A DNA stretch of 64,000 nt. It comes from an uncultured virus (IMG/VR IMGVR_UViG_3300027907_000553). Lineage: Duplodnaviria; Heunggongvirae; Uroviricota; Caudoviricetes. Shown here one piece after another: positions 1,140-40,507 of this stretch. Location: IMG/VR virus record IMGVR_UViG_3300027907_000553. One strand, written 5' to 3'. Both the position numbers and the translations under genes were made by a program. The notes under the pieces were generated by a model. The model was not told the origin of the DNA. It worked only from the letters and a program-made list of their open reading frames with translations, and ran no database searches. Positions within the stretch are counted from its first letter, which is position 1. Each line of letters opens with the position of its first letter.

Positions 1140-1582
1140 GCATGACCATTACGATTGAGACGATTCACATTGACCAGGTGGTCATGACGGCCCCGGCCGC
1201 GCCCAGTCTCCGCTGGCATGTCGGGCCGGTGCAGACCACCACAGGAGGCAGCATGCCGATTGAAGTGACCCTCACGACCGAAGAGAAATGCCGACTCGCC
1301 ATTGCGCCGCTGACGGCCGGGGGCGCTCCCGCGCAGGTGGACGGGGAGGCGCAGTGGAGCGTCGAGGGGACCTGTACGATCGAGCCCATTGATGCCACGA
1401 GTGCGTGGGTGGTCGCAGGCGCCATGGGCGATAGTACGGTGAGCGTCGGCGTGGATGCCGACCTCGGCGCCGGCGTCGTCCCCATTGGCGACACCGCGCT
1501 CATCCATGTGAACAACCCCGAGGCGGCCAGTGTGGGCCTTGCGGCCGATGCGCCAGTGCTCAAAACCGAGGAGCCGGTCTAA
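1136..1582 (+). CDS. Hypothetical virion protein, possibly Ig-like
   Basis: ATGA overlap with the previous gene; beta-rich acidic composition. Confidence 0.5.
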   Translation: MSMTITIETIHIDQVVMTAPAAPSLRWHVGPVQTTTGGSMPIEVTLTTEEKCRLAIAPLTAGGAPAQVDGEAQWSVEGTCTIEPIDATSAWVVAGAMGDSTVSVGVDADLGAGVVPIGDTALIHVNNPEAASVGLAADAPVLKTEEPV

Positions 1583-1613
1583 TGCCCTCCATTGTGGCCC
1601 TCGTGCCTGTTGA

Positions 1614-1678
1614 GCCGCAGCTCACCGGAGCAAGCCGCAGCCCGACTTGGCACAAGGGAATGTAGCCTGGCTTAGAGT
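1614..1678 (-). ncRNA. Pentamer-periodic array C, putative guide RNA
   Basis: + strand units gccgc agctc accgg agcaa gccgc agccc gactt ggcac aaggg aatgt agcct ggctt agagt, at and just after the Cas7-like stop codon. Confidence 0.55.
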
Positions 1679-2238
1679 TTATGCATCGTGAACCGCCCAT
1701 ATTCGGGCCGTTCTTCCAAGATGCCAATACTCGTCCCGGCAATGACAACCAACTCATCCACTTCGCCGGGATTCAACAGCTCGTCGTTAAAGGCGAGTTG
1801 GATTTGCGTACTCCAGGGAAAGAAGATCGGACGAGTACGCAGTACGCGTTGGCCGCGCATACTCTTCGTCGTGCGATAGATAAAGTCGGCATCTTGGTAC
1901 AGCGTCTGCGGATCAGAGGGACCATCGTAGAGAAGTGTGGCGTGTTCTTCAGCCACAAGGCCCGGTTTCACCTTGGGGCCTTTTTTGAGAGTCATCGCTG
2001 CACGCAGGAGTGTAGCTTTGATCGCTTCGCGCGGAATGCACGGTTGGCCATTGTGCAGATAAAGGCTGCCCAGCCATTCCAGGTGTCCGATTTCTTCGTG
2101 ATCGGCTTCCGTCTTCTTGCGTTTGTCCGTGATCTTTTTGATAGCTTTGGTCCATTGATTGAGCGGATCGGACAATTGCCCATTGTGCATCAAGAGTGGG
2201 GCCACGCCTTCGAGATGGTATTTCGCAGTCTGTTTCAC
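1672..2238 (-). CDS. Solo Cas7/RAMP-like RNA-binding protein (188 aa)
   Basis: N-terminal YHLEGVAPLLMHN, central IPREAIKATL, RTRPIF..W, C-terminal G-rich loop AGTSIGILEERPEYGRF; GTG start at 2238 with SD AGGAG. Confidence 0.7.
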   Translation of the reverse strand: MKQTAKYHLEGVAPLLMHNGQLSDPLNQWTKAIKKITDKRKKTEADHEEIGHLEWLGSLYLHNGQPCIPREAIKATLLRAAMTLKKGPKVKPGLVAEEHATLLYDGPSDPQTLYQDADFIYRTTKSMRGQRVLRTRPIFFPWSTQIQLAFNDELLNPGEVDELVVIAGTSIGILEERPEYGRFTMHKL

Positions 2239-2548
2239 AAGCAATCTCCTGATAGGAGGAGCCAAACATATGCACAACATGAGGCGGTGCCACCTCTTGC
2301 ACAGGTGGTAACTCCCTCGTTGTGTAGCGGAGACGACGTTGGTGATCCGTCACAAGGTCATGACAGGGGACACAGAGCGTTGTTAGGTCGTTTAGCTCCT
2401 CCTTTCCGAAGCGTTCATAGGTGCGGTGATGGGCTTGTAATGTCTCATCGCTATTACAGAGACGGCAGCGGTAATTATCACGGGCAAGGCACTGCGCACG
2501 AATAGTCCGCCAATAGGGGCTGGCATAGTGGGATTCATCATAGAGCAT
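1949..2548 (-). CDS. HNH endonuclease; the ORF tail overlaps the Cas7-like gene
   Basis: RDNYRCRLC..LQAHHRTY..DLTTLCVPCH. Confidence 0.8.
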   Translation of the reverse strand: MLYDESHYASPYWRTIRAQCLARDNYRCRLCNSDETLQAHHRTYERFGKEELNDLTTLCVPCHDLVTDHQRRLRYTTRELPPVQEVAPPHVVHMFGSSYQEIACETDCEIPSRRRGPTLDAQWAIVRSAQSMDQSYQKDHGQTQEDGSRSRRNRTPGMAGQPLSAQWPTVHSARSDQSYTPACSDDSQKRPQGETGPCG

Positions 2549-2550
2549 AA

Positions 2551-2780
2551 AATGTACCTAAACAAAGCAGAGCACGACTTAGTGAAGCCTAGCGTAGCGG
2601 GACCGAACGCATAAGGGCATAGCATAACCAAGCTCAGCATAACACAACGGAGCTGAACCAAGCTTTACACAACAGAGGCAACCGGAGCACAACGCAGCCA
2701 AGCTGAACGCATCACAGAGTAGCGCATCGAAGCCTAGCAGATCGCAGCGCAACGGAGCCTAACCTAACAGGGCAAAGCCT
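2551..2780 (-). ncRNA. Pentamer-periodic array B (46 units), putative guide RNA(s)
   Basis: Continuous 5-nt phase; + strand mostly A(G/A)C-NN, i.e. NN-GYT on the transcribed strand; a few degenerate units. Confidence 0.8.
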
Positions 2781-2809
2781 AAAATCTATAAGCTGGCGGC
2801 GACACAAGG

Positions 2810-2919
2810 AGCATAGCCTGGCCTAGCGAAACAAAACGAAACCTAACAGAGCAAAGCTTGTCAGAGCTTAACGTAGCAAAACATACCAGAGCGTACCCTG
2901 GCTTAGATAACCCAAGCGG
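2810..2919 (-). ncRNA. Pentamer-periodic array A (22 units), putative guide RNA
   Basis: agcat agcct ggcct agcga aacaa aacga aacct aacag agcaa agctt gtcag agctt aacgt agcaa aacat accag agcgt accct ggctt agata accca agcgg. Confidence 0.85.
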
Positions 2920-2928
2920 GGGTTGAGC

Positions 2929-3066
2929 CTACGCATCTTTATGCTGTTCTAAATAGGCATCTATGACCCTCCGCAACATCTCAGAAAAGGAAAGGCCGTG
3001 TCGTTTGGCCAGAGTCGTCAGTGCCTGAAATTGTGGAAGACTTAGCATGACGGTTATACGCTTCAT
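2929..3066 (-). CDS. Ribbon-helix-helix (CopG/Arc-like) regulator, 45 aa, absent from the ORF track
   Basis: Hand translation: MKRITVMLSLPQFQALTTLAKRHGLSFSEMLRRVIDAYLEQHKDA. Confidence 0.8.
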   Translation of the reverse strand: MKRITVMLSLPQFQALTTLAKRHGLSFSEMLRRVIDAYLEQHKDA

Positions 3067-3074
3067 AGGCATTT

Positions 3075-3103
3075 ATTATACTGACATCATATGTATGATG
3101 CAA
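3075..3103 (-). promoter_or_regulatory. sigma70 promoter with an overlapping palindromic operator
   Basis: TTGCAT-17 nt-TATAAT on the minus strand; inverted repeat CATCATA-tg-TATGATG at 3085-3100. Confidence 0.8.
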
Positions 3104-3119
3104 GCATAGAAAGTATTGT

Positions 3120-3590
3120 ATGCCTTCGATCATTCCGTTGGTAGATGTCACGCTCGATAAGCCCCGGCATCTACTCTTTACGAGGGCGGCGGTCAAGAAC
3201 ATTGAGTTGGCCCTCACACGGATCTGGGGCCGCGACTACACGTTTTTTGAGGCCGTGCGGCGGCTCAGTGAAATGTTGTTGGATAATGATCTAAGTAAAC
3301 TAAGTTATATTAATATTGCCGTCCTGCTCCACCAAGGCTGCCTGCATGAGGACCCCGCGTTGACGCTCACGCAAGTGGAAGAGTCCTTGCCCTATGCGGA
3401 CCCCACGGGACTCATCCCCTATGTCGGGCTCATCCTCCAAGCCTGGAGCCATGCGAGCCCGCAAGTGGTCGTGGAGGCCGTCACGGCTGAGGCGACAGAC
3501 AGCGACCCTTTGGCCGAATCGACTGGGGCAAGCTCTGGGCCTTTGAACGGACCTGCCTTGGTGTCAGCGACGGCGAGTTCTGGCGCATGA
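3120..3590 (+). CDS. Tail assembly chaperone (lambda gpG-like)
   Basis: Between tail tube and tape measure genes; slippery site near the 3' end. Confidence 0.75.
   Translation: MPSIIPLVDVTLDKPRHLLFTRAAVKNIELALTRIWGRDYTFFEAVRRLSEMLLDNDLSKLSYINIAVLLHQGCLHEDPALTLTQVEESLPYADPTGLIPYVGLILQAWSHASPQVVVEAVTAEATDSDPLAESTGASSGPLNGPALVSATASSGA
3506..3512 (+). other. -1 programmed ribosomal frameshift site C CCT TTG
   Basis: XXXYYYZ heptamer in the correct frame; the -1 frame is open (GRIDWGKLWAFERTCLGVSDGEFWRMT) into ORF 3587..3865. Confidence 0.8.
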
Positions 3591-3865
3591 CGTTTCTCGA
3601 AGGGCACCTGCTGGCCGAGGCGTACTGGCGGCAACAGCAGCGGCAGGTGCGACCGATGGCGATGCTCCTGCAAGCGTATTGGAACGTGCACCGGGATACG
3701 GATCAGCGCCGCGAGCCGTTTACGCTCGAGGACATGCTGGCGGTCTTAGGGTATCCCGAACCACCCGCGCCGCCTCCCCCGCCTCCTCGGTTGGAGGAGA
3801 TCGAGGAGCGGATCGGGATACTGCATAGCTTGTATACCGCGAATGGGGAGAGAAAGGCTGATTAG
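3512..3865 (+). CDS. gpT-like frameshift extension of the tail chaperone
   Basis: LGVSDGEFWRMT motif typical of G-T extensions. Confidence 0.7.
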   Translation, partial: GRIDWGKLWAFERTCLGVSDGEFWRMTFLEGHLLAEAYWRQQQRQVRPMAMLLQAYWNVHRDTDQRREPFTLEDMLAVLGYPEPPAPPPPPPRLEEIEERIGILHSLYTANGERKAD

Positions 3866-4803
3866 CCAGGAATCAGCAACAACGGTTGCACAGGTTTTAG
3901 TACGGTTCTGTTGCCCTTGGTCGAATTACAGGATTGGCAGGCCGGTACTATGTTGCTGGCGGTATGGTTGCCGCCTTTTGAAATTGGTGTGAGATGGTCC
4001 ATAGTCAAGCGTTTCATCTTGCGTCCGCAATACACACAGCGATGGCCATAATGCTGTTTCATAGCTTCCCATTGCGCACGGGTAAAGTCATTAATTGCGG
4101 TAGCAGCTTTGCGTACTCGATATCTTTCTTGATTTATCTGACGAACTTCAGGATGCGTTTGATTCCAGGCACGGTCATAGCCAGGATGGTTTTGTCGAAA
4201 ACGACGCTGGGTTTCCTTCGTCGTATCGGGATTCTCTGCGCGGTATTGACGTGCTCGTGCATTGATAGTGTCACGATGTTTCGCGTGATGGGCTCTCGCC
4301 TCTTGGCGCGCTTTTTCTGGGTCTTGCGCATAGCGAGCAGCGCTATAGGCACGTCCTTGGGCACGCAACTCTTCTCGATGCGTTTCTCGATACTTCGCTT
4401 TGATTGCCCGTATGTCGTCTGGATGTGTTTCCGCCCAGGCACGATTTGCCGCATCGCGTGCTTCTTTATGCTTTTGATACGACTGCCGATGTTGTTCCTG
4501 TATTTTTTCACGGTTGGCTTGATAAGCAGCATTGCGTTTCAAGCGGATTTCTTCACGATTGGCAGCCCACCACTCACGGTGCTTGGCGCTCCTTTCTTCC
4601 TTATGGGCATCTCGGTATTCCTTGGCTTGTGCAAGAAGGGCTTCTCGGTTGGCCGCATAGTAGCGTGCATCGTTTGCGCGGATCGTTTCCTTATGCGCGT
4701 CACGATAGGCTTTGCTCTGCGCCGCATGGTCACGTGCCCATTGGCGTTGATACTGTCGATGAGCTTCCAGTTGTTCAGGGGTCTTCGGACGTTTCGATGG
4801 CAT
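3862..4803 (-). CDS. HNH endonuclease with a long repetitive helical N-terminus
   Basis: CVYCG..LTMDHLTPISKGGNHTASNIVPACQSCNSTK; GGAGGT SD before ATG 4803. Confidence 0.9.
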   Translation of the reverse strand: MPSKRPKTPEQLEAHRQYQRQWARDHAAQSKAYRDAHKETIRANDARYYAANREALLAQAKEYRDAHKEERSAKHREWWAANREEIRLKRNAAYQANREKIQEQHRQSYQKHKEARDAANRAWAETHPDDIRAIKAKYRETHREELRAQGRAYSAARYAQDPEKARQEARAHHAKHRDTINARARQYRAENPDTTKETQRRFRQNHPGYDRAWNQTHPEVRQINQERYRVRKAATAINDFTRAQWEAMKQHYGHRCVYCGRKMKRLTMDHLTPISKGGNHTASNIVPACQSCNSTKGNRTVLKPVQPLLLIPG

Positions 4804-4932
4804 GAGACCAACCTCCGGTTGTTGGTTCCGGTGCGATGGATACGGCAACTCGCCGGAAACGAGCTTCTCGGGTTGCAATCCCTAGCCGTACCCCCTGAGT
4901 ATAGCAGAAAAGTGGGAAGGATAGCGATTTAA

Positions 4933-19241: not shown

Positions 19242-19738
19242 TGAAACGTCTTGTGCCTCTCCTCCTCCTGAGCAGTATCCTCTGGGCGGCCCCGCTCTGG
19301 GCCGCTTCCCCCTTCGTTTGGCTCCGTGGTGCCATCGACACCTGGATTACGACCAGCACCGGGTTGGCGAGCGGCTCCAGCGTGCTCTCCGCCGCCATTA
19401 CGCTCAGCAGTGCCAACTATACGAGGGCAGACTGCGAACTGAATACCGGCGCCTGGAGCGGTGCGGTGGCGGCCAATACCGCCGTCGTCGTGTGGCTGAT
19501 TCGGCAGGCGGACGGAACCAATTATGAAGACGGGGCTACTGGGACGGATCCCGCCCGTCTCCCTGATTTTATCTTTCCCCTGCGCGCGGTCAGCACGGCC
19601 CAGCGGATTGTGATTCCGAGCATTGAACTCCCACGGGGGTTGTTCAAAGCCCTGCTCAAAAATGATGGCACGGGCGTGACCCTCCAGGGCGCCCCATGGA
19701 CGCTCAAATGCACTCCGTACGTGTTACAAGTGCCCTAG
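19238..19738 (+). CDS. Signal-peptide-bearing hypothetical protein
   Basis: MMKRLVPLLLLSSILWAAPLWA. Confidence 0.65.
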   Translation: MMKRLVPLLLLSSILWAAPLWAASPFVWLRGAIDTWITTSTGLASGSSVLSAAITLSSANYTRADCELNTGAWSGAVAANTAVVVWLIRQADGTNYEDGATGTDPARLPDFIFPLRAVSTAQRIVIPSIELPRGLFKALLKNDGTGVTLQGAPWTLKCTPYVLQVP

Positions 19739-20583
19739 CTCTTCTCCTGCTGCTCACGCTGCTGAGTGCGCCAGCGCTCGCGCAACCCCGGCTGGATCGG
19801 AATGCACCTACCGCCCAGGGGCTTTTGGGGTGGTGGCGGGCGGTAGCAGGTCTGACCGGGGGGCGTACCTGGTATGATCTCACCGGACGCTTTGCGGCGA
19901 CGCTTATCAACATAGACGCGGCGGGGAGTAGTGGCTGGGGCGCGACCACACGCCCCGGCGGACAGGGCGAAGTGCGCTTTGATGGCAGCAATGATTACGG
20001 CACACTGCCCGTGACCTCCCAGTTGTGGCCGCCCGCGGTGTCCATCCTCCTGTGGGTCAAACGTACGGCCACCGGGAACGACTATCAAGGGCTGTTTACT
20101 GGCGGGGATAATGGGGGATTTCGGGACATTACGCTGCGCTCGACTGGCGGCATGAACGTCTCGTTTGTCACGGCCCCTGGGACCTACCTACAACAAGACA
20201 ATGTGAATCCTGGGAGTGTCGCCATTGGCGTATGGACACACCTTGCGTATACCTACAGTAGTACCACGGGCTTACAAGGCTATGTCAATTGTGTGCCCAA
20301 TGGCGCCCCGAATAGCCCCGATGGAACGATGTATCCCATTACCACGCTGGGCACCATGTTTGGGGCCTCGCAAATATCGGGGATCACCTACTTCGCCGGT
20401 GCCATGGATGACATTAAACTCTACAAGCGGGCGTTACTTGCCAGGGAAGTCTGTCAGGTGATGCGGGACTCGCAACTTGGGGAGCCGCGCCTGCTTCCGC
20501 CAGCGCTCCTGGTCGGCGTGCTGCCGCCGCTGGTCGGCCCCGGCCCCACGAGCCGCTTTTTGCCCTTTTTCCAGACCCCCTGA
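19708..20583 (+). CDS. LamG/concanavalin A-like lectin with signal peptide
   Basis: FDGSNDY..WTHLAYTY..YFAGAMDDIKLYKRAL. Confidence 0.85.
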   Translation: MHSVRVTSALALLLLLTLLSAPALAQPRLDRNAPTAQGLLGWWRAVAGLTGGRTWYDLTGRFAATLINIDAAGSSGWGATTRPGGQGEVRFDGSNDYGTLPVTSQLWPPAVSILLWVKRTATGNDYQGLFTGGDNGGFRDITLRSTGGMNVSFVTAPGTYLQQDNVNPGSVAIGVWTHLAYTYSSTTGLQGYVNCVPNGAPNSPDGTMYPITTLGTMFGASQISGITYFAGAMDDIKLYKRALLAREVCQVMRDSQLGEPRLLPPALLVGVLPPLVGPGPTSRFLPFFQTP

Positions 20584-20593
20584 AAGGATTGTT

Positions 20594-23053
20594 ATGGTGT
20601 GGTTGGTCTTCGTCGTCAGTCTCATGTGGGTCATCCCTGCCTGGAGTGCCACCTACTACGTGTCTACCACAGGAGCCTCAGATGGGAATCCCTGTGTGAA
20701 CAACAATATTGGCGCGCCTAAAAGGAATATCGCTGGACCAAATGGTGGTATCTCCTGTTTGTTTCCCGGCGACACGCTGTTCATTCGTCAAGGCACGTAT
20801 AATGAGACCATCACGCCACCAGGGGGGTCCTGGATGCGCAATGGGACGGGGGATAACAGTCGGATCACCATTGCCGGCTACCCTGGAGAAACCGTCATTC
20901 TCCAACCGTTTAGTGGTGGCGCCGTGCTCTCCCTCCAGCAGACAGGCAATTTTAGTTGGATGACTTTCCAAGACCTTATCTTTGATGGAACCAATACTTC
21001 TGGTGTCGCGTCCATTGCGGGAGACACCCACCATTTGCGGTTTCTGCGGTGTGAACTCCGCAACGCGTCGCAGGGGGGCAACTCGGCGCATGGCTTTGGG
21101 GGGTCAGGCGGCGCCAATCATGAATTTCTCTACCTCTATATCCACCACAATACCGGCTATGGGGCCTATTTCTCCGGGGCTAATTCGGTCTGGGACCATG
21201 TGACTATTACTGATAATGGGGGGTATGGGCTGCACTTTTACGATAAATCCTCCCACATTGATAACACGGTCGTCAAAAATAGCATTATTGCGCGCAACGG
21301 GTTTAACAACTCCTCGGGCGGGGGCGGGATTGTGCTCTTCCACGGCGACAATCAGCAAGTCTATAACAATCTCATTTACGGCAATTTCGATGGCGTCGGC
21401 ATTCGCAGTAGCTGCGGCGACTGCAAAGTCTATAACAATACCATTCATGGTAATCAATTTCGGGCGATCCAGATTCTGGGTGAAAACTTTGATTATGAAT
21501 ATCCGCCGGGCAGTGGGCAATTCCGGCCGATTCGTGAGCCCGCGAACGTCGTCTTGCAAAATAATATTCTCTCCAATAATGGCAATACCATCGAGCATGA
21601 AAATGGCACCATCGCAGCCATGGACCACAATCTCTGCATAGGCACGTCGCAAAACCTCTGTGATATGGTCGGTAATCCTGCCTATGAAGATGCCGGGAGT
21701 GACAATTTTAAATTGACCGGGAACAGTCAGGCGCGCAATAGGGTGCCCACGAGTGCAGGCGCCTGTAAAATAGCGATTGACTTTGAAGGCACGGCCCGGC
21801 CCCAAACTCCGGTGGGCGGCTCGGCTACCCCGTGTGATATTGGGGCCTATGAGTACAATGAGGGCAACCCCACGACCCCACCCAACGGCAATCCCATCTA
21901 TGTGCGGGGGAGTGTCGGCAACGATGCCAATGATTGCTTTGCCGCGGAAAGTCCTGTTACCGCCAAGCAGCACTTGCTGGGGCCGCAGGGGGCACTCAGT
22001 TGCATGCAGACGCCGGGCAAGGTCTTGTACATCGAAGGCAATGGCCAGGTATATAGCGAGGAAATTGATATCGCCACCACCGGCCTCGTGGGGGGGGATG
22101 GCCCCTCGTTTACATCCGCGACGCGCCTGGAAGGCTATGGCTCTCCGCTACCCGTTCTCAAGGCCCCCGCCGGTGGCAATCTCAACCTGTATGTGCGTGG
22201 CAGCAATGCCAAGTATCTGATTTTTAAGAAGCTCATCATTGACGGTAATAATGATACCTACAACACTGTAGCGATTGCGACCCCCGCCCATCATATTCGC
22301 TTTGAAGAGGTGGAAGTGAAAAATACCCTGGGTCGAGGGTTTGAGGGCGTGCATATCTCGAATGTCACCAATATCGAGCTGGTAGATACCTTTATCCACG
22401 ATGTCCAGACCGAGGCGATTACCCTGGAAGGCAGCATTGATGGCATGCTGTGTCAGCGGTGTCATCTGTTTAGTGCCCAGGGCAAGGGCTTTTTGGTAGT
22501 GAATAATGGCACCAAAGCCAATGTCACCCTGCGGGAAACGGAAATCCGCAATAATAGCGACGAGGGAATTGATGTGGCCACCGGCACCGGCGTGCTCTTG
22601 CAAAACCTGCTGCTCCACTCCAACGGGGGCCGGGGCGTGTGGATTCAGAGTGGAGCCACGGGGACCAGCGTCTTGAACACGACGGTGTATGGCAATACGG
22701 GTGTGGGCGTGCAGTGTGATCCGCCCGCCGCCAACACTCAGATTGTGAACAATATCGTCTATGGCAATACGGGTGGGAACATCGTCAACAATTGCAGTGC
22801 CGCCGCCTCCTCCAACGTCACCATCAACCCGAACTTTCGCGGCCCACCGGGGGATTTGAAGCTCAACGAACCCTCGCCCGCGATTGACCAGGGGCAGACG
22901 CTCCCCAGTATCTTGACCGATTATGAAGGTCAGCCGCGTCAGCAAGGCCAGCAGGACGTGGGCGCCTATGAAACGATTGCGACGACAGGCACGCCTGGCG
23001 AGACGGTCACCGAGCAGCCGTGCAATCTGTTGGCCGCGAGCATGTACTTTTAG
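20594..23053 (+). CDS. Tandem right-handed beta-helix (pectate-lyase-like) protein with signal peptide
   Basis: WSATYYVST, PGDTLFIRQGTY, VYNNLIYGN/VYNNTIHGN repeats, DIGAYE and DVGAYE ends. Confidence 0.85.
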   Translation: MVWLVFVVSLMWVIPAWSATYYVSTTGASDGNPCVNNNIGAPKRNIAGPNGGISCLFPGDTLFIRQGTYNETITPPGGSWMRNGTGDNSRITIAGYPGETVILQPFSGGAVLSLQQTGNFSWMTFQDLIFDGTNTSGVASIAGDTHHLRFLRCELRNASQGGNSAHGFGGSGGANHEFLYLYIHHNTGYGAYFSGANSVWDHVTITDNGGYGLHFYDKSSHIDNTVVKNSIIARNGFNNSSGGGGIVLFHGDNQQVYNNLIYGNFDGVGIRSSCGDCKVYNNTIHGNQFRAIQILGENFDYEYPPGSGQFRPIREPANVVLQNNILSNNGNTIEHENGTIAAMDHNLCIGTSQNLCDMVGNPAYEDAGSDNFKLTGNSQARNRVPTSAGACKIAIDFEGTARPQTPVGGSATPCDIGAYEYNEGNPTTPPNGNPIYVRGSVGNDANDCFAAESPVTAKQHLLGPQGALSCMQTPGKVLYIEGNGQVYSEEIDIATTGLVGGDGPSFTSATRLEGYGSPLPVLKAPAGGNLNLYVRGSNAKYLIFKKLIIDGNNDTYNTVAIATPAHHIRFEEVEVKNTLGRGFEGVHISNVTNIELVDTFIHDVQTEAITLEGSIDGMLCQRCHLFSAQGKGFLVVNNGTKANVTLRETEIRNNSDEGIDVATGTGVLLQNLLLHSNGGRGVWIQSGATGTSVLNTTVYGNTGVGVQCDPPAANTQIVNNIVYGNTGGNIVNNCSAAASSNVTINPNFRGPPGDLKLNEPSPAIDQGQTLPSILTDYEGQPRQQGQQDVGAYETIATTGTPGETVTEQPCNLLAASMYF

Positions 23054-23063
23054 GGAGGGCGCG

Positions 23064-24941
23064 ATGCGTTGCTGGATCGTCCTCGTCATGCTCTGCTTCT
23101 GCCTGCCGCGCTTGGGGGCGGCGCATTGTGTCCCCCAGCCGCCCGCGACGCTCTTTCCCGTGGTCGTGAATCAGTTTGGGTATACACCCACGGCCCAGAA
23201 AGTGGCGGTGGTCCGCGATCCTCAGACGGGCTTTGATGCCGCCACCGACTATACCCCGCCGGCAAGTCTCCAGGTGCGCCGCCGTAGCGATACGGGCCTG
23301 GTCATGACCGTTACCCCCACGGCCTGGAACGGGGGGGCCACGCATGGACAGTCGGGTGACAAGGTGTGGTGGGTCGACATGTCCGCGCTCGGGCCTGGGG
23401 TGTATTACCTCTTCGATCCCTCCCGCAATGCCCGCAGCGATTTTTTTGCCGTGAGCGATACGGTGTATACCACGGTGCTCCGGCAAGTCCTCCGCATGTT
23501 CTATTATCAAAGGAGTGGTTTTGCCAAGGCGGCGCCCTACACGGATGCGAAGTGGGCCGACGCCGCCGCGTTTCTGGGCACCGGGCAAGATACGCAGGCG
23601 CGCAGTATCGCGGACAAGACCAATCCGGGGACGGCCAAAGACGTGCGGGGCGGCTGGTTTGATGCCGGGGACTACAATCGTTACACCGTCTGGGCCACGT
23701 GGACACTCGCCGATCTGCTGCTGGCTTATCTCCAGTATCCTGCCGTGTGGACGGATGATTTGAACATTCCAGAGTCAGGCAACGGCATTCCGGATCTCCT
23801 GGACGAAGTGAAGTGGGAGTTGGAGTGGCTGTTGAAGATGCAAGCGGCCACAGGAAACAACAGTGTCCTCAGTAAGGTCTCCACGGATACCTCGGTGGGG
23901 ACCAGCCCGCCCTCGGCCGATACGAACGCGCATTACTGGGGCGCCGCGTCAACGGCTTCGACCGCGTGCACGGCGGGCGTCTTTGCTCTGGGTGCGATCG
24001 CTTTTGCCCAGGCCGGGCAAACGACCTATGCCACCACTCTCACCACGGCGGCCACGAACGCCTGGACCTGGGCCCAGGGCAATCCCAGTGTCACCTACGA
24101 TAACGCGGGCTTTACCACCCCCTCGCCGGAGCCCGATACGTATGGCCGTAGCATGTGTATGTTACAAGCAGGTATATACCTGTATGCCAGGACAGGCACA
24201 GGGGCATACAAGACCTATGTGGAAGCCAATTATACGAATGCCCATGCCCTCAGCTTTCCCTACTGGTATGGCTCGAATCCCATGGATGTGGCGACGCAGC
24301 ACGCCCTGCTCTATTATGCGGCCCAACCTGGCGTGACAGCCGGGGTGAAGACGGCCATTCAAAACAGCAAGACGGCGAGCATGACAGCAGGAAGCAATGG
24401 TGATGAACTCTTAAACGCTGCGACCAATGCCACCGATGCGTACCGCAGTTACGTCAAAGACGCGGATTATGCGTGGGGGAGTAATCGTACTAAAGCGCAC
24501 ATCGGGGGGCTCTTCCTCGACCAATTGCGCTACAGCCTCGATGCCCCCAATGCCACCGCGTATAAAAATGGCGCTGCGGGCTACCTGCATTACCTCCTCG
24601 GGGTCAATCCCTTGGCCATCGTGTACCTGACCAACATGAATGCCTACGGGGCGACGCGCTCGGTCGATGAGATCTGGCACTATTGGTTTAACGATGGGAC
24701 TGATTGGGATAATGCGATCACCTCGCCCAAAGGGCCAGCGCCAGGCTATTTGGCTGGGGGACCGAATCCTAATCCCAGTGGCACAGGTTTACCGACGCCG
24801 CCTGCCGGGCAACCAATCCTTAAGAGTTTCGCCAGTTTTAATACGACAGAGCCTGTCCGGTCATGGGAGTTTACGGAACCTGGTATTTACTACCAAAGTG
24901 CACTAATTTATTTACTAGCACACTTCGTGGCGAATCCATGA
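23064..24941 (+). CDS. Glycoside hydrolase family 9 with N-terminal Ig-like domain and signal peptide
   Basis: VNQFGY..QKVAV; DVRGGWFDAGDY; SGNGIPDLLDEVKWELEWL; YLLGVNP; TEPGIYYQSAL. Confidence 0.93.
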   Translation: MRCWIVLVMLCFCLPRLGAAHCVPQPPATLFPVVVNQFGYTPTAQKVAVVRDPQTGFDAATDYTPPASLQVRRRSDTGLVMTVTPTAWNGGATHGQSGDKVWWVDMSALGPGVYYLFDPSRNARSDFFAVSDTVYTTVLRQVLRMFYYQRSGFAKAAPYTDAKWADAAAFLGTGQDTQARSIADKTNPGTAKDVRGGWFDAGDYNRYTVWATWTLADLLLAYLQYPAVWTDDLNIPESGNGIPDLLDEVKWELEWLLKMQAATGNNSVLSKVSTDTSVGTSPPSADTNAHYWGAASTASTACTAGVFALGAIAFAQAGQTTYATTLTTAATNAWTWAQGNPSVTYDNAGFTTPSPEPDTYGRSMCMLQAGIYLYARTGTGAYKTYVEANYTNAHALSFPYWYGSNPMDVATQHALLYYAAQPGVTAGVKTAIQNSKTASMTAGSNGDELLNAATNATDAYRSYVKDADYAWGSNRTKAHIGGLFLDQLRYSLDAPNATAYKNGAAGYLHYLLGVNPLAIVYLTNMNAYGATRSVDEIWHYWFNDGTDWDNAITSPKGPAPGYLAGGPNPNPSGTGLPTPPAGQPILKSFASFNTTEPVRSWEFTEPGIYYQSALIYLLAHFVANP

Positions 24942-28649: not shown

Positions 28650-29471
28650 GTGGTAAGCATACCAGATCTATCCTCTACGCATGCAACTCCTGTGACAACG
28701 CCCCGCGCTGTTGAACCCACCGTGCTCCAGCCCGAGGCGCGTTCGGCGCATCCCGACCTGATGCTGCTGCTGGCTATGGAGCATCTGCAACAGGAGCAGC
28801 AACGCCTCGAAACCGAGGTGCAACAGCTTGTCCCGCTTCTTGAGCAAATCATTACCCTGCTCACGCCACGCCAAGAGCCTCCGCCGCCGCCCATCGCCTC
28901 CTATGCACGTTTGTATGCTGACGAGGACCTGCCTGACGTGGTCCCCCAGGTTGCCGCCGCCCCGCCGCCGCCGCCACGAAGGATCTGGCGCCGCGTCGTC
29001 GCCTCGCGCAGTAGCCGGGTCTTCGCTGCCCTCGCGGTGCTCGCCGTGGGCGCGCTTCCCTGGGTGCGGGTGAATGTCACGTCCAGTGCGCCTCGTGGCC
29101 TCTGGCGCCTGCTGGCTGTACCGGCAGTGGTGGAGAAAGGTATGTGGGTGACTATGCCCGCGCCCGCGAGTGTGAAAACCTGGGCGCCGCACTGGTCACC
29201 CCTGCTCAAGCCGGTAGCCGCGGTGGCTGGGGAACAGGTCTGTGTCGCCAAGGACACGCTCTTGATTCGGGGAGAGTCCTATGGCCGTGTCTTCACGCAG
29301 GATGCCGAGGGACAGCCGCTCCCACGGCTGCGGGAGGGCTGTATGGTGGTGCAGCCTGGCACAGTGTTCCTGGCCAGTGCTGGACATCAGAGTCTCGATA
29401 GTCGGTATTTTGGGAGTGTGCCGGTGGCGGCGCTGTCGTCGCGGGCGCTCCCGCTTCTCACGTGGAGGTAA
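28650..29471 (+). CDS. traF: TraF-like S26 pilin-processing peptidase with N-terminal extension
   Basis: NVTSSAPRGLW, LLKPVAAVAGEQVC, SLDSRYFG. Confidence 0.85.
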   Translation: MVSIPDLSSTHATPVTTPRAVEPTVLQPEARSAHPDLMLLLAMEHLQQEQQRLETEVQQLVPLLEQIITLLTPRQEPPPPPIASYARLYADEDLPDVVPQVAAAPPPPPRRIWRRVVASRSSRVFAALAVLAVGALPWVRVNVTSSAPRGLWRLLAVPAVVEKGMWVTMPAPASVKTWAPHWSPLLKPVAAVAGEQVCVAKDTLLIRGESYGRVFTQDAEGQPLPRLREGCMVVQPGTVFLASAGHQSLDSRYFGSVPVAALSSRALPLLTWR

Positions 29472-29682
29472 GGCACGGGTGAGACAGTTCTTGTACGACT
29501 GCCTCGATAAGCCGCTGGGGTGGTCCTTCTATGTGATAGAGCTCCTCGGTTTTCTCCTCGTCACGCTCTATTTCTATGGCGTGAATCCCTCGCACATGGT
29601 GGCGGAGATGGTGCGGGGGCTCTTGGTGTTTGGAGTGGTGTGTACTGGTCGTCGCCTGCTCGTCGGGCACTGGAGGTAACTC

Positions 29683-30033
29683 ATGGATACGTTGCAGCAG
29701 CTTCGGGATCGTCTTGCCAACTTGTATCGCACCGCCCTCGGCCGGGATCCTGTGCCGGGGCAACGCCAGGAATCGTCCTTGGTGAACGGGGTCCTGCGGC
29801 AAACGCTGGATCCTGACCAGGGACTGGCACAGCAGCGCCTGACGGCGCCTGAGAGGACAGGCCAGCAGTCCTCGCTCTCACGGCAGGCGTTTGACCAGTT
29901 GGGGCAGCGGAGTACGCCCGCTCCGTCGGCCCAGAAGTTTCTGGACCAGATTGATGCGCTCCAACAACGCCTGGCTGCCGCCCGGCAGGCGGATCAGGCG
30001 CAGCAGCGCCAGGGGTGGGAGCGTGGACGTTAG
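29683..30033 (+). CDS. Hypothetical Gln-rich protein
   Basis: GGAGGT SD; C-terminal QQRQGWER. Confidence 0.55.
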   Translation: MDTLQQLRDRLANLYRTALGRDPVPGQRQESSLVNGVLRQTLDPDQGLAQQRLTAPERTGQQSSLSRQAFDQLGQRSTPAPSAQKFLDQIDALQQRLAAARQADQAQQRQGWERGR

Positions 30034-30055
30034 GGACGATCGGTAGGGATCTCCA

Positions 30056-31570
30056 ATGACTGCTGTTGAAATGATCTTCCAACTGGGTCTGTGGACCAAG
30101 ACGCATCCCCAGCTGCTTTTTGGGGGGATGGGGAGCATGCTGGCCCTGATGGCCGGCGCCGGGATGTTGGGGCGTGCCAAACGGCACAAACAGATTACCC
30201 AGGGCAGCGCCAGGTGGGCCACGTTTCGAGAGATACGGGACGCAGGGTTGCTCGCGCCCCAGGGCGTGGTGGTTGGGCGCTTAGGGCGACGGCTCCTCTG
30301 TGACGATAGTGAGACGCACGACTTACTGCTGGCGCCGACGCGCAGCTGGAAAGGCATTGGCCCCATTCTCTGCACGCTCCTCGGCGGATGGCTCTCCTCA
30401 GTCCTGGTGTACGATCCTGCCGATGGGGAGAATGCCAACGCCTCGGCACGGTGGCGAGCCTCGTTAGGCCATCGGGTTGAACAATTTACGCCGAAGCGCT
30501 CGCCCCAGGCCTGCATCAATGTGTGTGACCTCATTCGCGTGGGAACGCCGCACGAGTTTGATGATGCCTGGGCGATTGCGGAGAGCCTCCAGCCGCAGGA
30601 CCAGCAGGTGCGCCACAGTGACACCGGCGTCCATTTTCGGGACCTGGTGTTGATGCTCCTCACCGCCGCGCAACTGCACATGGCCTACGCGGAACCGCCG
30701 GGCTCACTCGGCAAACTGCTGTGGCTCCTCATGCAGAAGTACCGCACGCTCCCGGCCTTTGTGCAGGAGATGACGCGCCACAACCACACGGGTATCGGCG
30801 TCCACCAGGCCATTCATATGCTGGCGACGGGGATTCAGAACATTACCAACGAGCGCGAGCTCTCGGGCGTGTGGACGACCGCGATCCGTCCCTTACTCCC
30901 CTATATGGATTACACGATTCAGCGCAGCACGGATCGCTCGACCATCGCCCTGCGCGATTTGCAGCATGGTCCCGCGCCGCTCTCGCTCTACCTGGTCGCC
31001 CCCAGCACCACGGATTTGACGCGCCTGGCCCCGGTCTACCGCGTCATTTCCGATATGGCCATGCGGGAGTTGGAGCAGATGCCGCCGCGGAGCGCTCGGC
31101 ATCGCCTGCTGGTCATTGCGGATGAGGCCCCGGCCTATGGCTATAGCCGCTTTCTCGATAAAGGGAGTGCTGAGGTGGCCAAGTTTCGCATCAAGCTCCT
31201 TCTTGTGGCGCAAGATATCCCGCAGTTGGATGCCACGTTTGGGCGGGACAATAGCGTCTGGGGGAACACCTCCACCAAGATTTTCTTTGCTCCGGATAGT
31301 GATGTGACGGCCAAGCGCCTCAGTGAGCATTTTCTCGGCAAAGAGACCGTGGAGCAACCCGTCCTTTCGAAGCAGCCGGGTCTCGTCCAGCGGCCCTCGG
31401 TGTCGTATCAGCAAGTCGGGCGCGCGCTCATGACGCCCGATGAATTGCGGGCCATGCACCCGCGCGCTGCGATTGTCTACCGGACGGGGCTGCGGCCCAT
31501 TCTGTGTGGCAAGGTGAATTGTTTGACCGATCCAGACTATGCCGGCAGGCATACGGCGCCAGTCCCGTAG
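30056..31570 (+). CDS. virD4: Type IV coupling protein VirD4/TraG with variant Walker A
   Basis: GSARWAT..AGLL, APTRSWKGIG, LLVIADEAP, LVAQDIPQL, RALMTPDEL. Confidence 0.9.
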   Translation: MTAVEMIFQLGLWTKTHPQLLFGGMGSMLALMAGAGMLGRAKRHKQITQGSARWATFREIRDAGLLAPQGVVVGRLGRRLLCDDSETHDLLLAPTRSWKGIGPILCTLLGGWLSSVLVYDPADGENANASARWRASLGHRVEQFTPKRSPQACINVCDLIRVGTPHEFDDAWAIAESLQPQDQQVRHSDTGVHFRDLVLMLLTAAQLHMAYAEPPGSLGKLLWLLMQKYRTLPAFVQEMTRHNHTGIGVHQAIHMLATGIQNITNERELSGVWTTAIRPLLPYMDYTIQRSTDRSTIALRDLQHGPAPLSLYLVAPSTTDLTRLAPVYRVISDMAMRELEQMPPRSARHRLLVIADEAPAYGYSRFLDKGSAEVAKFRIKLLLVAQDIPQLDATFGRDNSVWGNTSTKIFFAPDSDVTAKRLSEHFLGKETVEQPVLSKQPGLVQRPSVSYQQVGRALMTPDELRAMHPRAAIVYRTGLRPILCGKVNCLTDPDYAGRHTAPVP

Positions 31571-31600
31571 GCTGGAGTGGAAGCAGGAAGGAGACGCACC

Positions 31601-31927
31601 GTGGTGAGCAAGACTGAGCGGAACACGACGGTTGGGGTGGTGGTGATGATAGGCGGACTCCTGGTGGTCCGCCAGGCCGCAGCCTTTTCCCTGGGGATTG
31701 CCCTCGATGGGTTTCTCGGGGATCTCGAAACGGCGCTGGTGTCCCTGGGCCTCATCGCCTTTTTGGCGGGCGGGATTGGCACGATTGTGGCGATGACCGA
31801 GAATGCCTACGCGCAATTCTTGAGTGGGTATCTCTCGCTCTTCGTCAAGGGCGGTATTTTAGGGGGGCTCTCCACGATTGGCGGGGCGTTGGGCCTCGTG
31901 AGTGGCGCCATCCTGCTAGGAGTGTAG
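31601..31927 (+). CDS. Pilin, VirB2/TrbC-like
   Basis: Small hydrophobic protein directly before VirB3 and VirB4. Confidence 0.6.
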   Translation: MVSKTERNTTVGVVVMIGGLLVVRQAAAFSLGIALDGFLGDLETALVSLGLIAFLAGGIGTIVAMTENAYAQFLSGYLSLFVKGGILGGLSTIGGALGLVSGAILLGV

Positions 31928-31928
31928 C

Positions 31929-32225
31929 ATGGCCGAACGGTGGGGGACGCTGGGCTATGAAGCCCCGATTCGCCTAGGCACCTGGCAGCGCCTGCTGAGT
32001 CTCGGGGCGCCACGCATGTACTCCTACACCTGGCTCATTGCCTGTATCTGGGTGGGCCTGGTCACCTGGATGAAGCTGGGCATGCGCTGGGCGGCGGCGA
32101 TCGGGGTGGTCTGGCTCAGCGTCCAACTCCTCTTGATTGGCCTCACGTACTGGAATGTGAATTGGGATAGTGCGTTGCTGGCCCGCTGGCGCCGTAAATA
32201 TCAACCGTACTATAGGGCAGGATAA
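31929..32225 (+). CDS. VirB3/TrbD-like protein
   Basis: GYEAPI..LSLGAPR, two TM segments, precedes VirB4. Confidence 0.7.
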   Translation: MAERWGTLGYEAPIRLGTWQRLLSLGAPRMYSYTWLIACIWVGLVTWMKLGMRWAAAIGVVWLSVQLLLIGLTYWNVNWDSALLARWRRKYQPYYRAG

Positions 32226-32227
32226 GC

Positions 32228-34855
32228 ATGGCGGTTTATACCGAATACCACCCGCAGCCCCGCAAAAAACCTGCCGTGGTCAGTGATATGCTGCCCTGGC
32301 GCGCGATGGTGGCCCCCAACGTGGTGCTCCAGAAAGACAAGGGCCTCCAACGCTCCTATGCCGTGCGAGGCACCGATGTGACGGGCCTTACCCCCGAAGA
32401 ACTGGGCACACAAGCCCTGCGGGCCAATGATGTCCTCAAAAAGTTTGGCGGGCAGTGGATGATCCATAGTGAAGCCCAGCGCCGACGCGTGACCGCCATC
32501 CCCCAGGCAGATTGGCAGGGCTATGCGGTGGCCGCGTGGATGGATGCCTGTCGCCGCCACCAACTCCTCGAAGATCCCGGTAGCTACGAAACGCAGTATT
32601 TTATGACGCCGACCTATCGCCCGCCGCCCGAAGCCGCCGTACAGGGTCTGCGCTGGTTCCTCTATGGCCCCGGTGCCCAACGCCAGACGGCAGAGGAGGC
32701 GCGGCAGCGCACCGAACAGGAGTTTGTGACGCAAGTCGATTACTTTATGGGGCTCCTTAGTGGCATGCTGGCCGAGTGTCGCGTGCTGACGCCAGCGGAG
32801 ACATTTACCTATCTCCATTCCACGATTTCGGATCAGTGGCACCCAGTGGGCACGCTGGCCTACTGGAACGGCATTGATAGCCAGCTCGGCACCTCGCCCT
32901 GGTACGGGGAGCATTACCCAAGCCTGGGAGGGCGGCCGGACGATCCGCAGTCCTGGAAAGTGCGGCTCTGCTCCATTATGGGCTATCCGCACAGCTCGGT
33001 CGTAGGGGTCATGCAGGCGCTCGACGTGGCGCAAGTGGAGTATCGCTGGGTGGTGCGCTGGCTGGGGATGCATCGCCAGTTGCAAGAAGGGATTTTGCGC
33101 CGGCGTCACCATGCCTGGGTGGGTCAGGAAAAAACGATGGCGCAGCGGGCGGCGGAACAGCTTGGCGGGGATGCGGCCCGCGTGACGGATAGCTCGGCCT
33201 TAAACAAAGCCGCCGAACTCGATGCGGCCCGGCAAGAAACCGGGCATGACCTGGTGGCCTACGGCGATTTTACCACGGTCATTATGGTCTGGGACCGCGA
33301 TCCTGCGGAAGCCGATATGAAGCTGCAAATCGTGCGCCAGGCCCTGCAAGATCGCGGCTTTACCACGGCGGTCGAAACCGATGAGAGTACGCCGGCCTGG
33401 TTTGCCACCCATCCGGGGAACCGTCTCGATCATGTCGCCCGCACGCCGCAATCCTCGCTCACGCTCGAACACCTCTGTCCGGGCCTCAATGCCGCCTGGC
33501 GTGGCCCAGAGCGTGACGCGTATCTGGACGGCTTGCCGTGGCTCTATGCCGTCAGTCGGGGGAATACGCTCATTAGGATCGTCAATCATATTCGTGACCT
33601 GGGACACTTCTTGGTGCTGGGCGCTACCCGTGCTGGTAAGTCGACGCTCCTCAACCTGTTACGCGCGGCCTGGATGCAGTACCGCCACGCGCAGGCCGTG
33701 CTCTTCGATCTGGATGGGCACGGCCGGCTGCTCACCCATCTCTTGGGCGGCGCGTGGCATGATCTGGGGGCGCCTGGCGTGCAGTATGCGCCGTTTCAGG
33801 GCCTGGAGGACCCGGAGCACCTGGGCCTGGTGCAAGAGTGGCTCCTGGACCTCTTGCTCGATTACGGCATTGAGCGCGATGCCATGGTGGTGAGTCATCT
33901 GGGGCGCGGCCTGGCCGCCTTGCGAGAGCAGCCGGCGGCACAACGCACCATGAGTACGCTCCTGAGTCTCCTGGTGGCGGCGGGGGAATCTGCCACGCAG
34001 CGGGCGAGGACAGGCAGTCGGGATATTCACGGCATTGCGCACCCGGATCAAACGCTCATGACCCTGGTCAATACCCGGCATGCCATCCACCGCACGCTCG
34101 AACAATTTACGCACCGTGGTGTGTATCAAGGGCTGTTTGATGCGGCGACGGACGACCTGACGGGCCATCCAGTCCAGACCTTTGAGATGGCGCAGCTGCT
34201 TCATCGTCCCTCGATCCTGGCCCCGGTCCTGCGCTACATCCTCAATCTCCATGTGGAGCCGCAGATGAGTACGGCGGCACCTATGTTCCTGGCGATGGAC
34301 GATGCGGCGGTCTCGTGGATGGCCGACTCGATGACGCAGGAAGTAACGGGCATGGCGGGAGTCCGGCGCGAAGAAAAAGTCCAGACCTACCTCCAAACCA
34401 AGGCCAAAAAAGCCGTGAGCCTGGGCTTTTCCACCCACAGCCTCATTAAAGTGTTTGGCGGGCCGCTGGGGACGCTCCTTCAGGAAGCGTGTCCGAGTCG
34501 ATTCATGCTGCCGAACGGGGCGGCACTGGAGCCGGACATCTATGCCGTCTATCAGCGTCTTGGGCTGACGGATCCGGCGATTCAGTTAGTCGCCCGCGCG
34601 CAACCCCAACGGGATGTCTTTTTTGTCCAGCGCGAGCTCGGGCAGCAGCTCGTGAGCATTCCGCTGCCGAAGCCGGTACTGGATTGTGTCGCAAGGAATA
34701 GCGCGGCGGACCATGCGCTGATCGATCGTCTCCTCGCTACGGAAGGTCCAGAGGGTTTTCCTCACGCGTGGTTTCGCGCCTGCGGGCAGCACGAGGCGGC
34801 AACGTTTGTCGAAAGGTATCACGATGACGCGAAGCGCATGGCTCCAATTACCTGA
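32228..34855 (+). CDS. virB4: VirB4/TrbE ATPase
   Basis: DMLPWRAMVAPNVVLQKDKGLQR; LGHFLVLGATRAGKSTLL; CPSRFMLPN. Confidence 0.93.
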   Translation: MAVYTEYHPQPRKKPAVVSDMLPWRAMVAPNVVLQKDKGLQRSYAVRGTDVTGLTPEELGTQALRANDVLKKFGGQWMIHSEAQRRRVTAIPQADWQGYAVAAWMDACRRHQLLEDPGSYETQYFMTPTYRPPPEAAVQGLRWFLYGPGAQRQTAEEARQRTEQEFVTQVDYFMGLLSGMLAECRVLTPAETFTYLHSTISDQWHPVGTLAYWNGIDSQLGTSPWYGEHYPSLGGRPDDPQSWKVRLCSIMGYPHSSVVGVMQALDVAQVEYRWVVRWLGMHRQLQEGILRRRHHAWVGQEKTMAQRAAEQLGGDAARVTDSSALNKAAELDAARQETGHDLVAYGDFTTVIMVWDRDPAEADMKLQIVRQALQDRGFTTAVETDESTPAWFATHPGNRLDHVARTPQSSLTLEHLCPGLNAAWRGPERDAYLDGLPWLYAVSRGNTLIRIVNHIRDLGHFLVLGATRAGKSTLLNLLRAAWMQYRHAQAVLFDLDGHGRLLTHLLGGAWHDLGAPGVQYAPFQGLEDPEHLGLVQEWLLDLLLDYGIERDAMVVSHLGRGLAALREQPAAQRTMSTLLSLLVAAGESATQRARTGSRDIHGIAHPDQTLMTLVNTRHAIHRTLEQFTHRGVYQGLFDAATDDLTGHPVQTFEMAQLLHRPSILAPVLRYILNLHVEPQMSTAAPMFLAMDDAAVSWMADSMTQEVTGMAGVRREEKVQTYLQTKAKKAVSLGFSTHSLIKVFGGPLGTLLQEACPSRFMLPNGAALEPDIYAVYQRLGLTDPAIQLVARAQPQRDVFFVQRELGQQLVSIPLPKPVLDCVARNSAADHALIDRLLATEGPEGFPHAWFRACGQHEAATFVERYHDDAKRMAPIT

Positions 34856-35077
34856 GCGTGAGCGGGCGGCGATCCGGCAGGCGAGTGCCGAGGCCAGCTT
34901 GCGCGATTTTGCCCCACGCCATGCGCGCCGCCGCAGTGAGTGGGAGCGCACCATGAGTATCTGGGAAGCTCGGGATGCCTACCGCGTCCAGAATGGTGTG
35001 CTCGGCGTCGGACTCGCGGCGCTGCTCGGTTTCGTGCTGATATGCGCGGGGATCTTTCTCCGCTAGAAAGGTGCCAT

Positions 35078-35979: not shown

Positions 35980-35982
35980 CGC

Positions 35983-36915: not shown

Positions 36916-36925
36916 GGAGACGAGA

Positions 36926-37681: not shown

Positions 37682-37694
37682 GGAGAGTGCTGGT

Positions 37695-39766: not shown

Positions 39767-39770
39767 TCCG

Positions 39771-40496: not shown

Positions 40497-40507
40497 AGTG
40501 TTTCCTC

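Follow-up and report, generated by a model that had tools for sequence, protein, structure and literature searches.

A probable VIPR system in the tail module of a rhizosphere phage, with a guide array that matches alleles of the neighbouring tail chaperone gene

Beside the tail genes of an uncultured rhizosphere phage of the Caudoviricetes (IMG/VR record IMGVR_UViG_3300027907_000553) lie two arrays of five-base repeats in which constant and variable bases alternate, raising the question of whether the variable bases spell out a guide and, if so, which DNA it would address. In the 64,000-nucleotide stretch analysed here (the window), 5-base periodicity spans positions 2549–2925 and falls into two blocks offset by a one-base phase shift; a purpose-written column-conservation (periodicity) detector, with which the arrays of other loci were also found, flags only 2614–2906 within the whole window. 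Array A (2810–2919) consists on the plus strand of 22 units of ARC+NN, 5 nt each, where NN denotes the two variable bases, and is read on the minus strand as GYU+NN. Array B (2556–2780, minus strand) has ~45 GYU+NN units, and direct reading places the one-base phase shift in the linker between the two (2781–2809, minus strand). A preliminary description, made by a model from the letters of the DNA, had proposed that array A is a guide whose dinucleotides decode, with every third target base skipped, to a variant of the adjacent tail chaperone gene. The 22 dinucleotides it listed are exactly those parsed from the sequence, and its hand count is borne out: against codons 52–73 of the chaperone gene (3273–3338, plus strand) array A agrees at 35/44 bases and 14/22 whole dinucleotides, collinear and ungapped.

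This resemblance is not due to chance. When the order of the dinucleotides was shuffled (n=300), the best score anywhere in the window averaged 24.1, with a standard deviation of 0.97 and a maximum of 28, against which the real match has a z of ~11; the second-best site for array A itself, on both strands of the window, scores 24/44. The signal is confined to a target period of 3, which gives 35, while periods of 2, 4 and 6 give 23, 24 and 24, respectively. It is likewise confined to one register: in a control with 21 units, unit columns 4–5 score 33/42 in the window and 37/42 in the related phage record G003, and the remaining four column pairs 24–27/42. The match is in frame with the open reading frame (ORF) 3120–3590, so the skipped base is the wobble base. 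Period and register controls thus support the proposed code of two bases read and the wobble base skipped, which is the '1 nt skip rule' of the VIPR systems; having been published in 2026, the code itself is not new.

VIPR systems, relatives of CRISPR and the subject of three preprints (10.64898/2026.04.26.720920, 10.64898/2026.04.26.720927 and 10.64898/2026.10.15.759431), employ guide RNAs of GGY/NN pentanucleotide repeats with one Vipr protomer per repeat (10.64898/2026.04.26.720920; 10.64898/2026.04.26.720927). Vipr, a ~20-kDa RAMP protein, polymerises on the guide RNA (2026 preprints including 10.64898/2026.04.26.720927), each protomer burying GGY and pairing NN with double-stranded DNA, while one target base in three, usually the one at the wobble position, is left unread. 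Most VIPR systems reside in phages and are directed against competing mobile elements, and disturbing the NN pairing abolished their silencing (10.64898/2026.04.26.720920). They are accompanied by accessory vap genes, some with HNH domains (an HNH vap appears in the legend of Fig. S21). The window holds a small RAMP homologue, pentanucleotide arrays beside its gene, vipr, a vap gene, and a target match in which one base, that at the wobble position, is skipped. It is therefore highly likely that this locus represents a VIPR system, borne by a low-GC cassette within the tail module of the phage.

The vipr gene (1672–2238, minus strand), its start codon set from its family, encodes a 188-residue RAMP protein of the Cas7/Csm3 type, of which one protomer is expected per repeat unit. 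Most of its 200 homologues are also 188 residues long; the protein has no Pfam domain, falls into phrog_4652 (function unknown) and is not covered by any model in a PADLOC scan. Its AlphaFold2 model (pLDDT 95.4) finds Csm3/Cas7 on top in a Foldseek search of the PDB (E 1.7e-5; 60 matches at E<=1e-3). A tblastn search revealed a homologous hypothetical protein in 130 GenBank phage records, mostly of Felixounavirus and Suspvirus. In phage SUSP2 the homologue is 30.5% identical over 95% of the protein (E 4e-13), its gene has GGT-NN arrays on both sides, and it possesses H17 and D177-W178-R179 in the numbering of the structure paper (10.64898/2026.04.26.720927). Across the 80 IMG/VR loci encoding Vipr homologues, on which our association counts rest, 5-nt arrays were detected in 74/80, and an HNH homologue lies directly upstream of vipr in 74/80.

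The constant bases of the window arrays, the handle, depart from those of the published systems. Over 67 units (22 + 45) the handle columns are conserved as G1 (62/67), Y2 (57/67) and U3 (59/67), while the NN columns of both arrays are mixed in base composition; the second handle base is G in 5/67 units only, and the GGY consensus (YNNGG units) is not followed. The preprint allows for 'a related consensus', naming NNNGG, YNNNG and NNNNG, and a handle that keeps G1 and loses G2, as the window arrays appear to do, is not among the forms named in the text available to us. In the Vipr structures a Trp of the so-called G-loop stacks on the second handle G, and a conserved His and the acidic G-loop residue contact the first (10.64898/2026.04.26.720927). 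The G-loop of SUSP2 reads GDWRPRFGRF, and D-W-R is found in most GGY-type relatives; the window protein has E-E-R, the closest distinct relative, L007, has E-S-R, and L046 combines E-L-R with a degenerate second handle base. The change of handle to GYU thus seems to go together with the change of G-loop. It directs attention to the residues responsible for handle specificity, from which orthogonal VIPR pairs could be engineered.

As for the strand, the array units of the 14 relatives inspected are on the vipr-sense strand, where they read GGY-NN with G in first place. In L007, whose Vipr, HNH and RHH proteins are 62%, 62% and 75% identical to those of the window, they are GCT/GTT-NN on the vipr-sense strand, one of them, like those of the window, between the RHH and HNH genes and the other after vipr, and this downstream array ends in an intrinsic terminator (a hairpin and T-run) on the same strand. 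Since the arrays of homologous loci are on the vipr-sense strand, those of the window are read on the minus strand as G-Y-U + NN. The earlier claim that the transcript is complementary to the chaperone sense strand gains indirect support from the array strand in homologues and from the L007 terminator; by analogy with VIPR, what the guide meets would be double-stranded DNA rather than mRNA. The L007 arrays and array B all end in GCUUUG, and a hairpin follows the L007 downstream array only. An Rfam search of the locus returned no family, hammerhead included.

Which allele is array A made for? The name tail chaperone for ORF 3120–3590 derives from gene position only: the tail-tube genes lie on one side of it and the tape-measure gene on the other, an ORF at 3587–3865 overlaps it in the -1 frame, and it has no match in Pfam or PHROGs. 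We scored array A against the 17 IMG/VR loci encoding this gene, which fall into three alleles. The allele identical to the window's occurs in 5/17 loci, all carrying the cassette, and scores 35/44, and a third type, that of the related record G002, occurs in 3/17 loci without the cassette and scores 34/44. The best-fitting allele, found in 9/17 loci and 82–88% identical in protein to the resident one, scores 38–39/44 (86–89%) and encodes MLLDNDLSKLSFVNISVLLWQG; we refer to it as the sensitive allele. None of the 12 non-identical loci has a cassette at the chaperone site. The preprint (10.64898/2026.04.26.720920) defined natural targets by an NN match of >=80% and reported self matches to stay below 80%. 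By this threshold 9/17 chaperone loci qualify, and the resident copy, at 79.5%, lies just below it. The proposal that array A is really meant for the ortholog of a related phage is therefore supported, with 9/17 loci outscoring the resident copy (38–39 vs 35/44). Indeed, the peptide ...SFVNISVLLYQG, which the preliminary description had predicted from the guide without tools, has 21/22 residues right when compared to MLLDNDLSKLSFVNISVLLWQG. The exact-pattern search it had called for fared worse: all 22 units with NN-skip gave 0 matches in IMG/VR, as did an exact 10-unit core.

The resident copy differs from the guide mainly by Leu CTN/TTR swaps and conservative replacements, as had been noted at the outset. 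Compared to the sensitive allele, its changes at codon positions 1 and 2 are concentrated in the target and in codons 5–11. Divergence to avoid self-targeting is consistent with this pattern, albeit unproven. Resident codons 55–66 (3282–3317) have 12 consecutive A/T wobble bases, lying exactly within the near-target, while the rest of the gene mostly has G or C at the wobble base; the run may stem from a donor of lower GC content or reflect some selection. A similar A/T wobble bias marks the recoded tail-tube target region of the related record G004.

The cassette that carries arrays and vipr interrupts this same gene. Its bounds, ~1617–3119, follow from alignment with the cassette-free records G002 and G003, in which the upstream gene p148 abuts the chaperone gene directly; in the window its GC content is 0.45–0.53, compared with 0.60–0.69 in the flanks. 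It is inserted 11 codons inside the chaperone gene. At the left edge, following the p148 stop, a remnant of codons 1–11 (1583–1616, plus strand) aligns with, and is nearly identical to, the chaperone start of G003. At the right edge a recoded version of codons 1–11 (3120–3152, plus strand) is now the working gene start, with 19/34 bases in common with the remnant. In blastn alignments homology to G003 stops after 1615/1616 and restarts at 3152. Among the IMG/VR chaperone loci the cassette is present in 5/17 and absent from 12/17; in the nearest virus record available, G001, the locus is not present.

Next to the arrays lies the vap gene (1949–2548, minus strand), which encodes an HNH nuclease whose HNH domain occupies the first ~90 codons (2548 to ~2280). 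It matches the PHROG HNH family at E 2.1e-13 and the Pfam HNH profile at E 0.0064, below the cut-off, and its residues D24, C28, C31, H40, H41, Y44, C59 and H63 (zinc and catalytic) are invariant in 40 sequences. Through 1949–2290 the ORF meets no stop before 1949, and it overlaps the first ~95 codons of vipr in another frame. The HNH ORFs of relatives likewise continue beyond the vipr start; the apparent conservation of this C-terminal extension is probably a by-product of the conservation of vipr in its own frame.

The first gene of the cassette operon (2929–3072, minus strand) encodes an RHH (CopG-like) protein (Pfam RHH_1, E 3.7e-5) and likely starts at its second ATG (3066). RHH genes are present in 6/80 loci, and the L007 homologue lies at the same place. 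The AT-rich region 3066–3119 contains, on the minus strand, TTGCAT and TATAAT separated by 17 nt, with the overlapping palindrome CATCATATGTATGATG, and is presumed from these motifs to hold divergent promoters and an RHH operator. A promoter scanner called no sigma-70 site in 1500–3300, the candidate promoter being passed over because its first hexamer fits the consensus at only 3/6 positions. At the other end of the cassette, the 55 nt past the vipr stop (1617–1671, minus strand) read, in 5-nt register, partly as G-Y-N + NN, where L007 has its intact downstream array. They may be a decayed third array, for which no target was found (best 20/30, equal to background).

A second insertion has the same architecture at a different site. 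In G004, the record that contains locus L007, the cassette sits ~6 codons inside the major tail-tube gene, between a remnant of the tail-tube start and a new, synonymously recoded one (14/18 bases in common, all differences at wobble bases). Its downstream guide of 15 units reads in frame onto tail-tube codons 24–38, scoring 28/30 on the window and on G002, 27/30 on its own record and 26/30 on G003; its upstream array has no target in four genomes (21–22/34). The distance from guide site to cassette junction is 153–219 nt in the window and 69–114 nt in G004, and both resident sites are recoded.

If the published VIPR structures apply, these elements could work as follows. Minus-strand transcription from the AT-rich promoter would run through the RHH gene, array A, array B, the HNH gene and vipr, and Vipr would polymerise along the array RNA, one protomer per 5-nt unit, each burying the three handle bases and presenting the two variable ones. 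The 22 dinucleotides of array A would then pair with positions 1 and 2 of codons in the chaperone sense strand, skipping the wobble base. During co-infection the ribonucleoprotein would bind a rival allele as double-stranded DNA, which would be silenced, as for type II VIPR, or handed to the conserved HNH nuclease, while the resident chaperone copy would be spared.

Several observations weigh against a guide system that works in this way. No recognisable conserved 3' tail or pseudoknot follows the window arrays, and their 22 and ~45 units exceed the 9–16 of published type II guides. The array RNA folds no better than its shuffles (z -0.27), as expected, nevertheless, for a guide coated by protein. 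The covariation of handle and G-loop has exceptions in L050, which combines D-W-R with GTT/GGT upstream arrays, and in L035, with E-M-R and mostly GGT. Because the five chaperone loci that carry the cassette do not differ from the window, they represent one lineage. Array A has no perfect target, its best match being 39/44; the resident copy at 79.5% is only four bases below this, leaving the discrimination of self from non-self unexplained, and the L007 guide matches its own genome at 27/30 (90%), in conflict with the statement of the preprint that self matches stay below 80%.

The alternatives fare unequally when set against the same data. That the arrays are a simple-repeat or cryptic coding region, whose likeness to the chaperone gene is accidental, could be argued from the silence of Tandem Repeats Finder over the arrays and from the short ORFs that run across them; a z of ~11 confined to one period and one register, the better fit of orthologous alleles than of the resident copy, and like arrays adjoining the same protein family in 74/80 loci make this so improbable that we reject it, the shuffle, period and register controls having already refuted it. 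It is also very unlikely that array A is transcribed from the plus strand as ARC+NN and pairs with the chaperone template strand. ARC is, like GGY, a purine-purine-pyrimidine triplet, and VIPR targets are found on either DNA strand (10.64898/2026.04.26.720920), yet every flanking cassette gene lies on the minus strand, homologous arrays are vipr-sense with a near-invariant 5' G, the L007 terminator is on that same strand, and the handle would begin with A instead of the G contacted by the conserved His and acidic G-loop residue (10.64898/2026.04.26.720927). A guide meant for the resident allele, whose partial pairing (35/44) would throttle the phage's own chaperone and tape-measure operon, for instance while it persists as a plasmid or prophage, is a less remote idea, albeit an improbable one. 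The near-target lies 200 bp from the cassette, a control region is common to both, the 12 consecutive A/T wobble bases would ease strand opening and so aid pairing, and the L007 guide fits its own gene at 90%. Self-regulation is, however, hard to reconcile with relatives that fit array A better than the resident does (39 vs 35/44), with 8/22 dinucleotides mismatched on the resident copy, and with the loss of silencing on disturbed NN pairing in the VIPR preprint (10.64898/2026.04.26.720920).

A further possibility elaborates the VIPR explanation instead of excluding it: the RHH-arrays-HNH-vipr cassette may be a selfish mobile unit, in which the guide brings the HNH nuclease, in a co-infecting relative, onto the sensitive form of the gene beside the insertion site, and repair from the cassette-bearing genome copies the cassette and its recoded, resistant flank into that relative. 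Two independent insertions (window and G004/L007), sharing a guide against the interrupted gene, a target within about 70–220 nt of the cassette junction, an HNH gene and empty sites in close relatives (G002, G003; 12/17 chaperone loci), give the layout expected of an RNA-specified homing or marker-exclusion element. The invariance of the HNH catalytic and zinc residues in 40 sequences is in keeping with this, as are other free-standing HNH genes that shift position within the same tail module. Against it, cleavage, co-conversion and transfer are all predicted steps, the insertion events number only two, and array B and the L007 upstream array have no target near the cassette; the L007 self match (27/30) is no worse than its match to G003 (26/30), and classical homing would leave no gene-start remnant on the far side. 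Moreover, when 233 arrays from across the wider family were compared with their flanking 3 kb, only the window type and L007 gave a convincing near-self match in frame: 10/233 arrays reach z>=5, and the 8 others match at 72% or less, 4/8 with stop codons. On balance we consider homing a tentative proposal that is rather unlikely to hold. The word 'homing' is absent from the main text of two of the preprints (10.64898/2026.04.26.720920 and 10.64898/2026.10.15.759431). Were the homing reading true, VIPR would be more than a weapon with which phages silence one another: it would also be a programmable drive that spreads a selfish cassette, and nature would have produced a homing endonuclease with its specificity written in RNA and tuned to coding sequence. 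Two insertions at the 5' end of the very gene that the guide reads make RNA-guided homing directly testable.

We return to VIPR and to what array B might recognise. Its best NN-skip match in the window, 48/92 (200 shuffles: mean 42.7, maximum 47), lies at 30128–30265 (plus strand), in the reading frame of a type IV coupling protein gene (Pfam T4SS-DNA_transf, E 4.4e-54), and is concentrated on the conserved N-terminal motif QGSARWAT..AGLL (28/40). No orthologs of the resident coupling protein were found in IMG/VR or in five related phage records. Array B scores 37–49/92 on nine metagenome coupling-protein loci, of which the close orthologs (47–49) are no better than the resident gene. Exact patterns of 18 and of 10 units gave 0 matches in IMG/VR, and sliding 15-unit pieces scored at background (18–21/30) on the window and three related phage records. 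A 10-unit pattern has two matches in genome contigs, which we rejected as chance, neither being in a coupling-protein gene (43 and 37/92). The coupling-protein gene of some other conjugative element may be what array B addresses; we put the chances of this at about even.

The coupling protein belongs to a full conjugation module at 28650–41788, flanked by the tail-fibre genes on one side and the replication and methylase genes on the other, which is made up of an S26 peptidase, VirD4/TraG coupling protein, VirB4, VirB6/TrbL, VirB8, VirB9/CagX, VirB10/TrbI and a MobA/MobL relaxase. Portal and Mu-F-like head genes lie at 59–63 kb. Taken together, the gene content resembles that of a tailed phage with a type IV secretion system of its own, and the element is possibly a conjugative phage-plasmid. 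The tail-fibre region (19696–24941) encodes a laminin-G/concanavalin-like protein, a beta-helix protein and a family 9 glycoside hydrolase with a CelD N-terminal domain, which suggests receptor-binding proteins of the depolymerase type. A second, unrelated HNH endonuclease ORF (3862–4878, minus strand; 338 residues; Pfam HNH, E 2.3e-13; GC about 0.5) separates the chaperone gene from the tape-measure gene, and its homologues in G002, G003 and G004 lie between the two tail-tube genes, so that it too appears mobile within the tail module. Another mobile nuclease-like gene of the conjugation module may be ORF 39729–40496, with T5orf172/MUG113 domains, between the VirB10-like and relaxase genes. 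Long GGC/GAC-NN pentanucleotide arrays without this vipr family occur in G003 (L118, 44560–46760), where they are punctuated by CGCAGGC, and in G002 (L113, 39620–39760). These may be solo or staggered vrRNA arrays, and no site at >=21/24 was found for them in four genomes.

Among known systems the closest is type II VIPR, as in Escherichia phage SUSP1 and a Pseudomonas fulva prophage, with which the window shares a homologous RAMP protein with adjoining pentanucleotide arrays, NN pairing with a wobble skip, phage carriage and targets in competing mobile elements. Compared to what is described of that type, the window has a G-Y-U instead of a G-G-Y handle and E-E-R instead of D-W-R in the G-loop, longer arrays (22 and ~45 units for 9–16) with no recognisable conserved tail or pseudoknot, and places these inside the operon, between the RHH and HNH genes. 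Its vap protein is an HNH nuclease in place of a winged-helix or helix-turn-helix protein, and its genome holds a 79.5% near-target 200 bp away. The nuclease-associated VIPR types III–V resemble the window in coupling Vipr to a predicted nuclease, HNH being named among their vap proteins, but they are enriched in cellular defence islands and act against viruses (10.64898/2026.04.26.720920), whereas the window system sits in a phage tail module and would be aimed at alleles of the phage's own genes. The text of the VIPR preprints available to us contains neither the GYU handle with its G-loop change, nor arrays of these lengths, nor an HNH-linked phage system directed at near kin, nor this cassette architecture. 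An HNH-linked VIPR that a phage directs against alleles of structural and conjugation genes which it carries itself would imply competition between near kin, where self and non-self differ by few bases, and would turn the mismatch tolerance of VIPR into a concrete, measurable question.

Class 1 CRISPR effectors (Cas7/Csm3 filaments) have the same fold by Foldseek, and their thumb likewise flips bases periodically out of the guide-target duplex (10.64898/2026.04.26.720927). They differ in having 5 paired and 1 flipped guide bases per subunit, compared with 2 paired and 3 flipped in VIPR, and the window guides are hard-wired, not acquired; no CRISPR-like repeats were found in the window, nor cas1/cas2 among the ORFs scanned. 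Free-standing phage HNH homing endonucleases are agents of intronless homing and marker exclusion. The window resembles them in having a low-GC HNH cassette inserted in a conserved structural module and present or absent among close relatives, a recognition site, here that bound by the guide, in the neighbouring gene of cassette-free relatives with the resident allele altered, and tolerance of wobble variation; recognition here, in contrast, is predicted to come from an RNA-protein filament, not from DNA-binding domains of the nuclease. The omega-RNA-guided nucleases TnpB and IscB of IS200/605 elements, which have a role in transposon retention, offer a parallel, in that a mobile element there brings along a guide RNA and a nuclease that act on the allele lacking the element. 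Their proteins are unrelated to those of the window, however, and their guide is contiguous, with a target set by the transposon end and not by neighbouring coding sequence.

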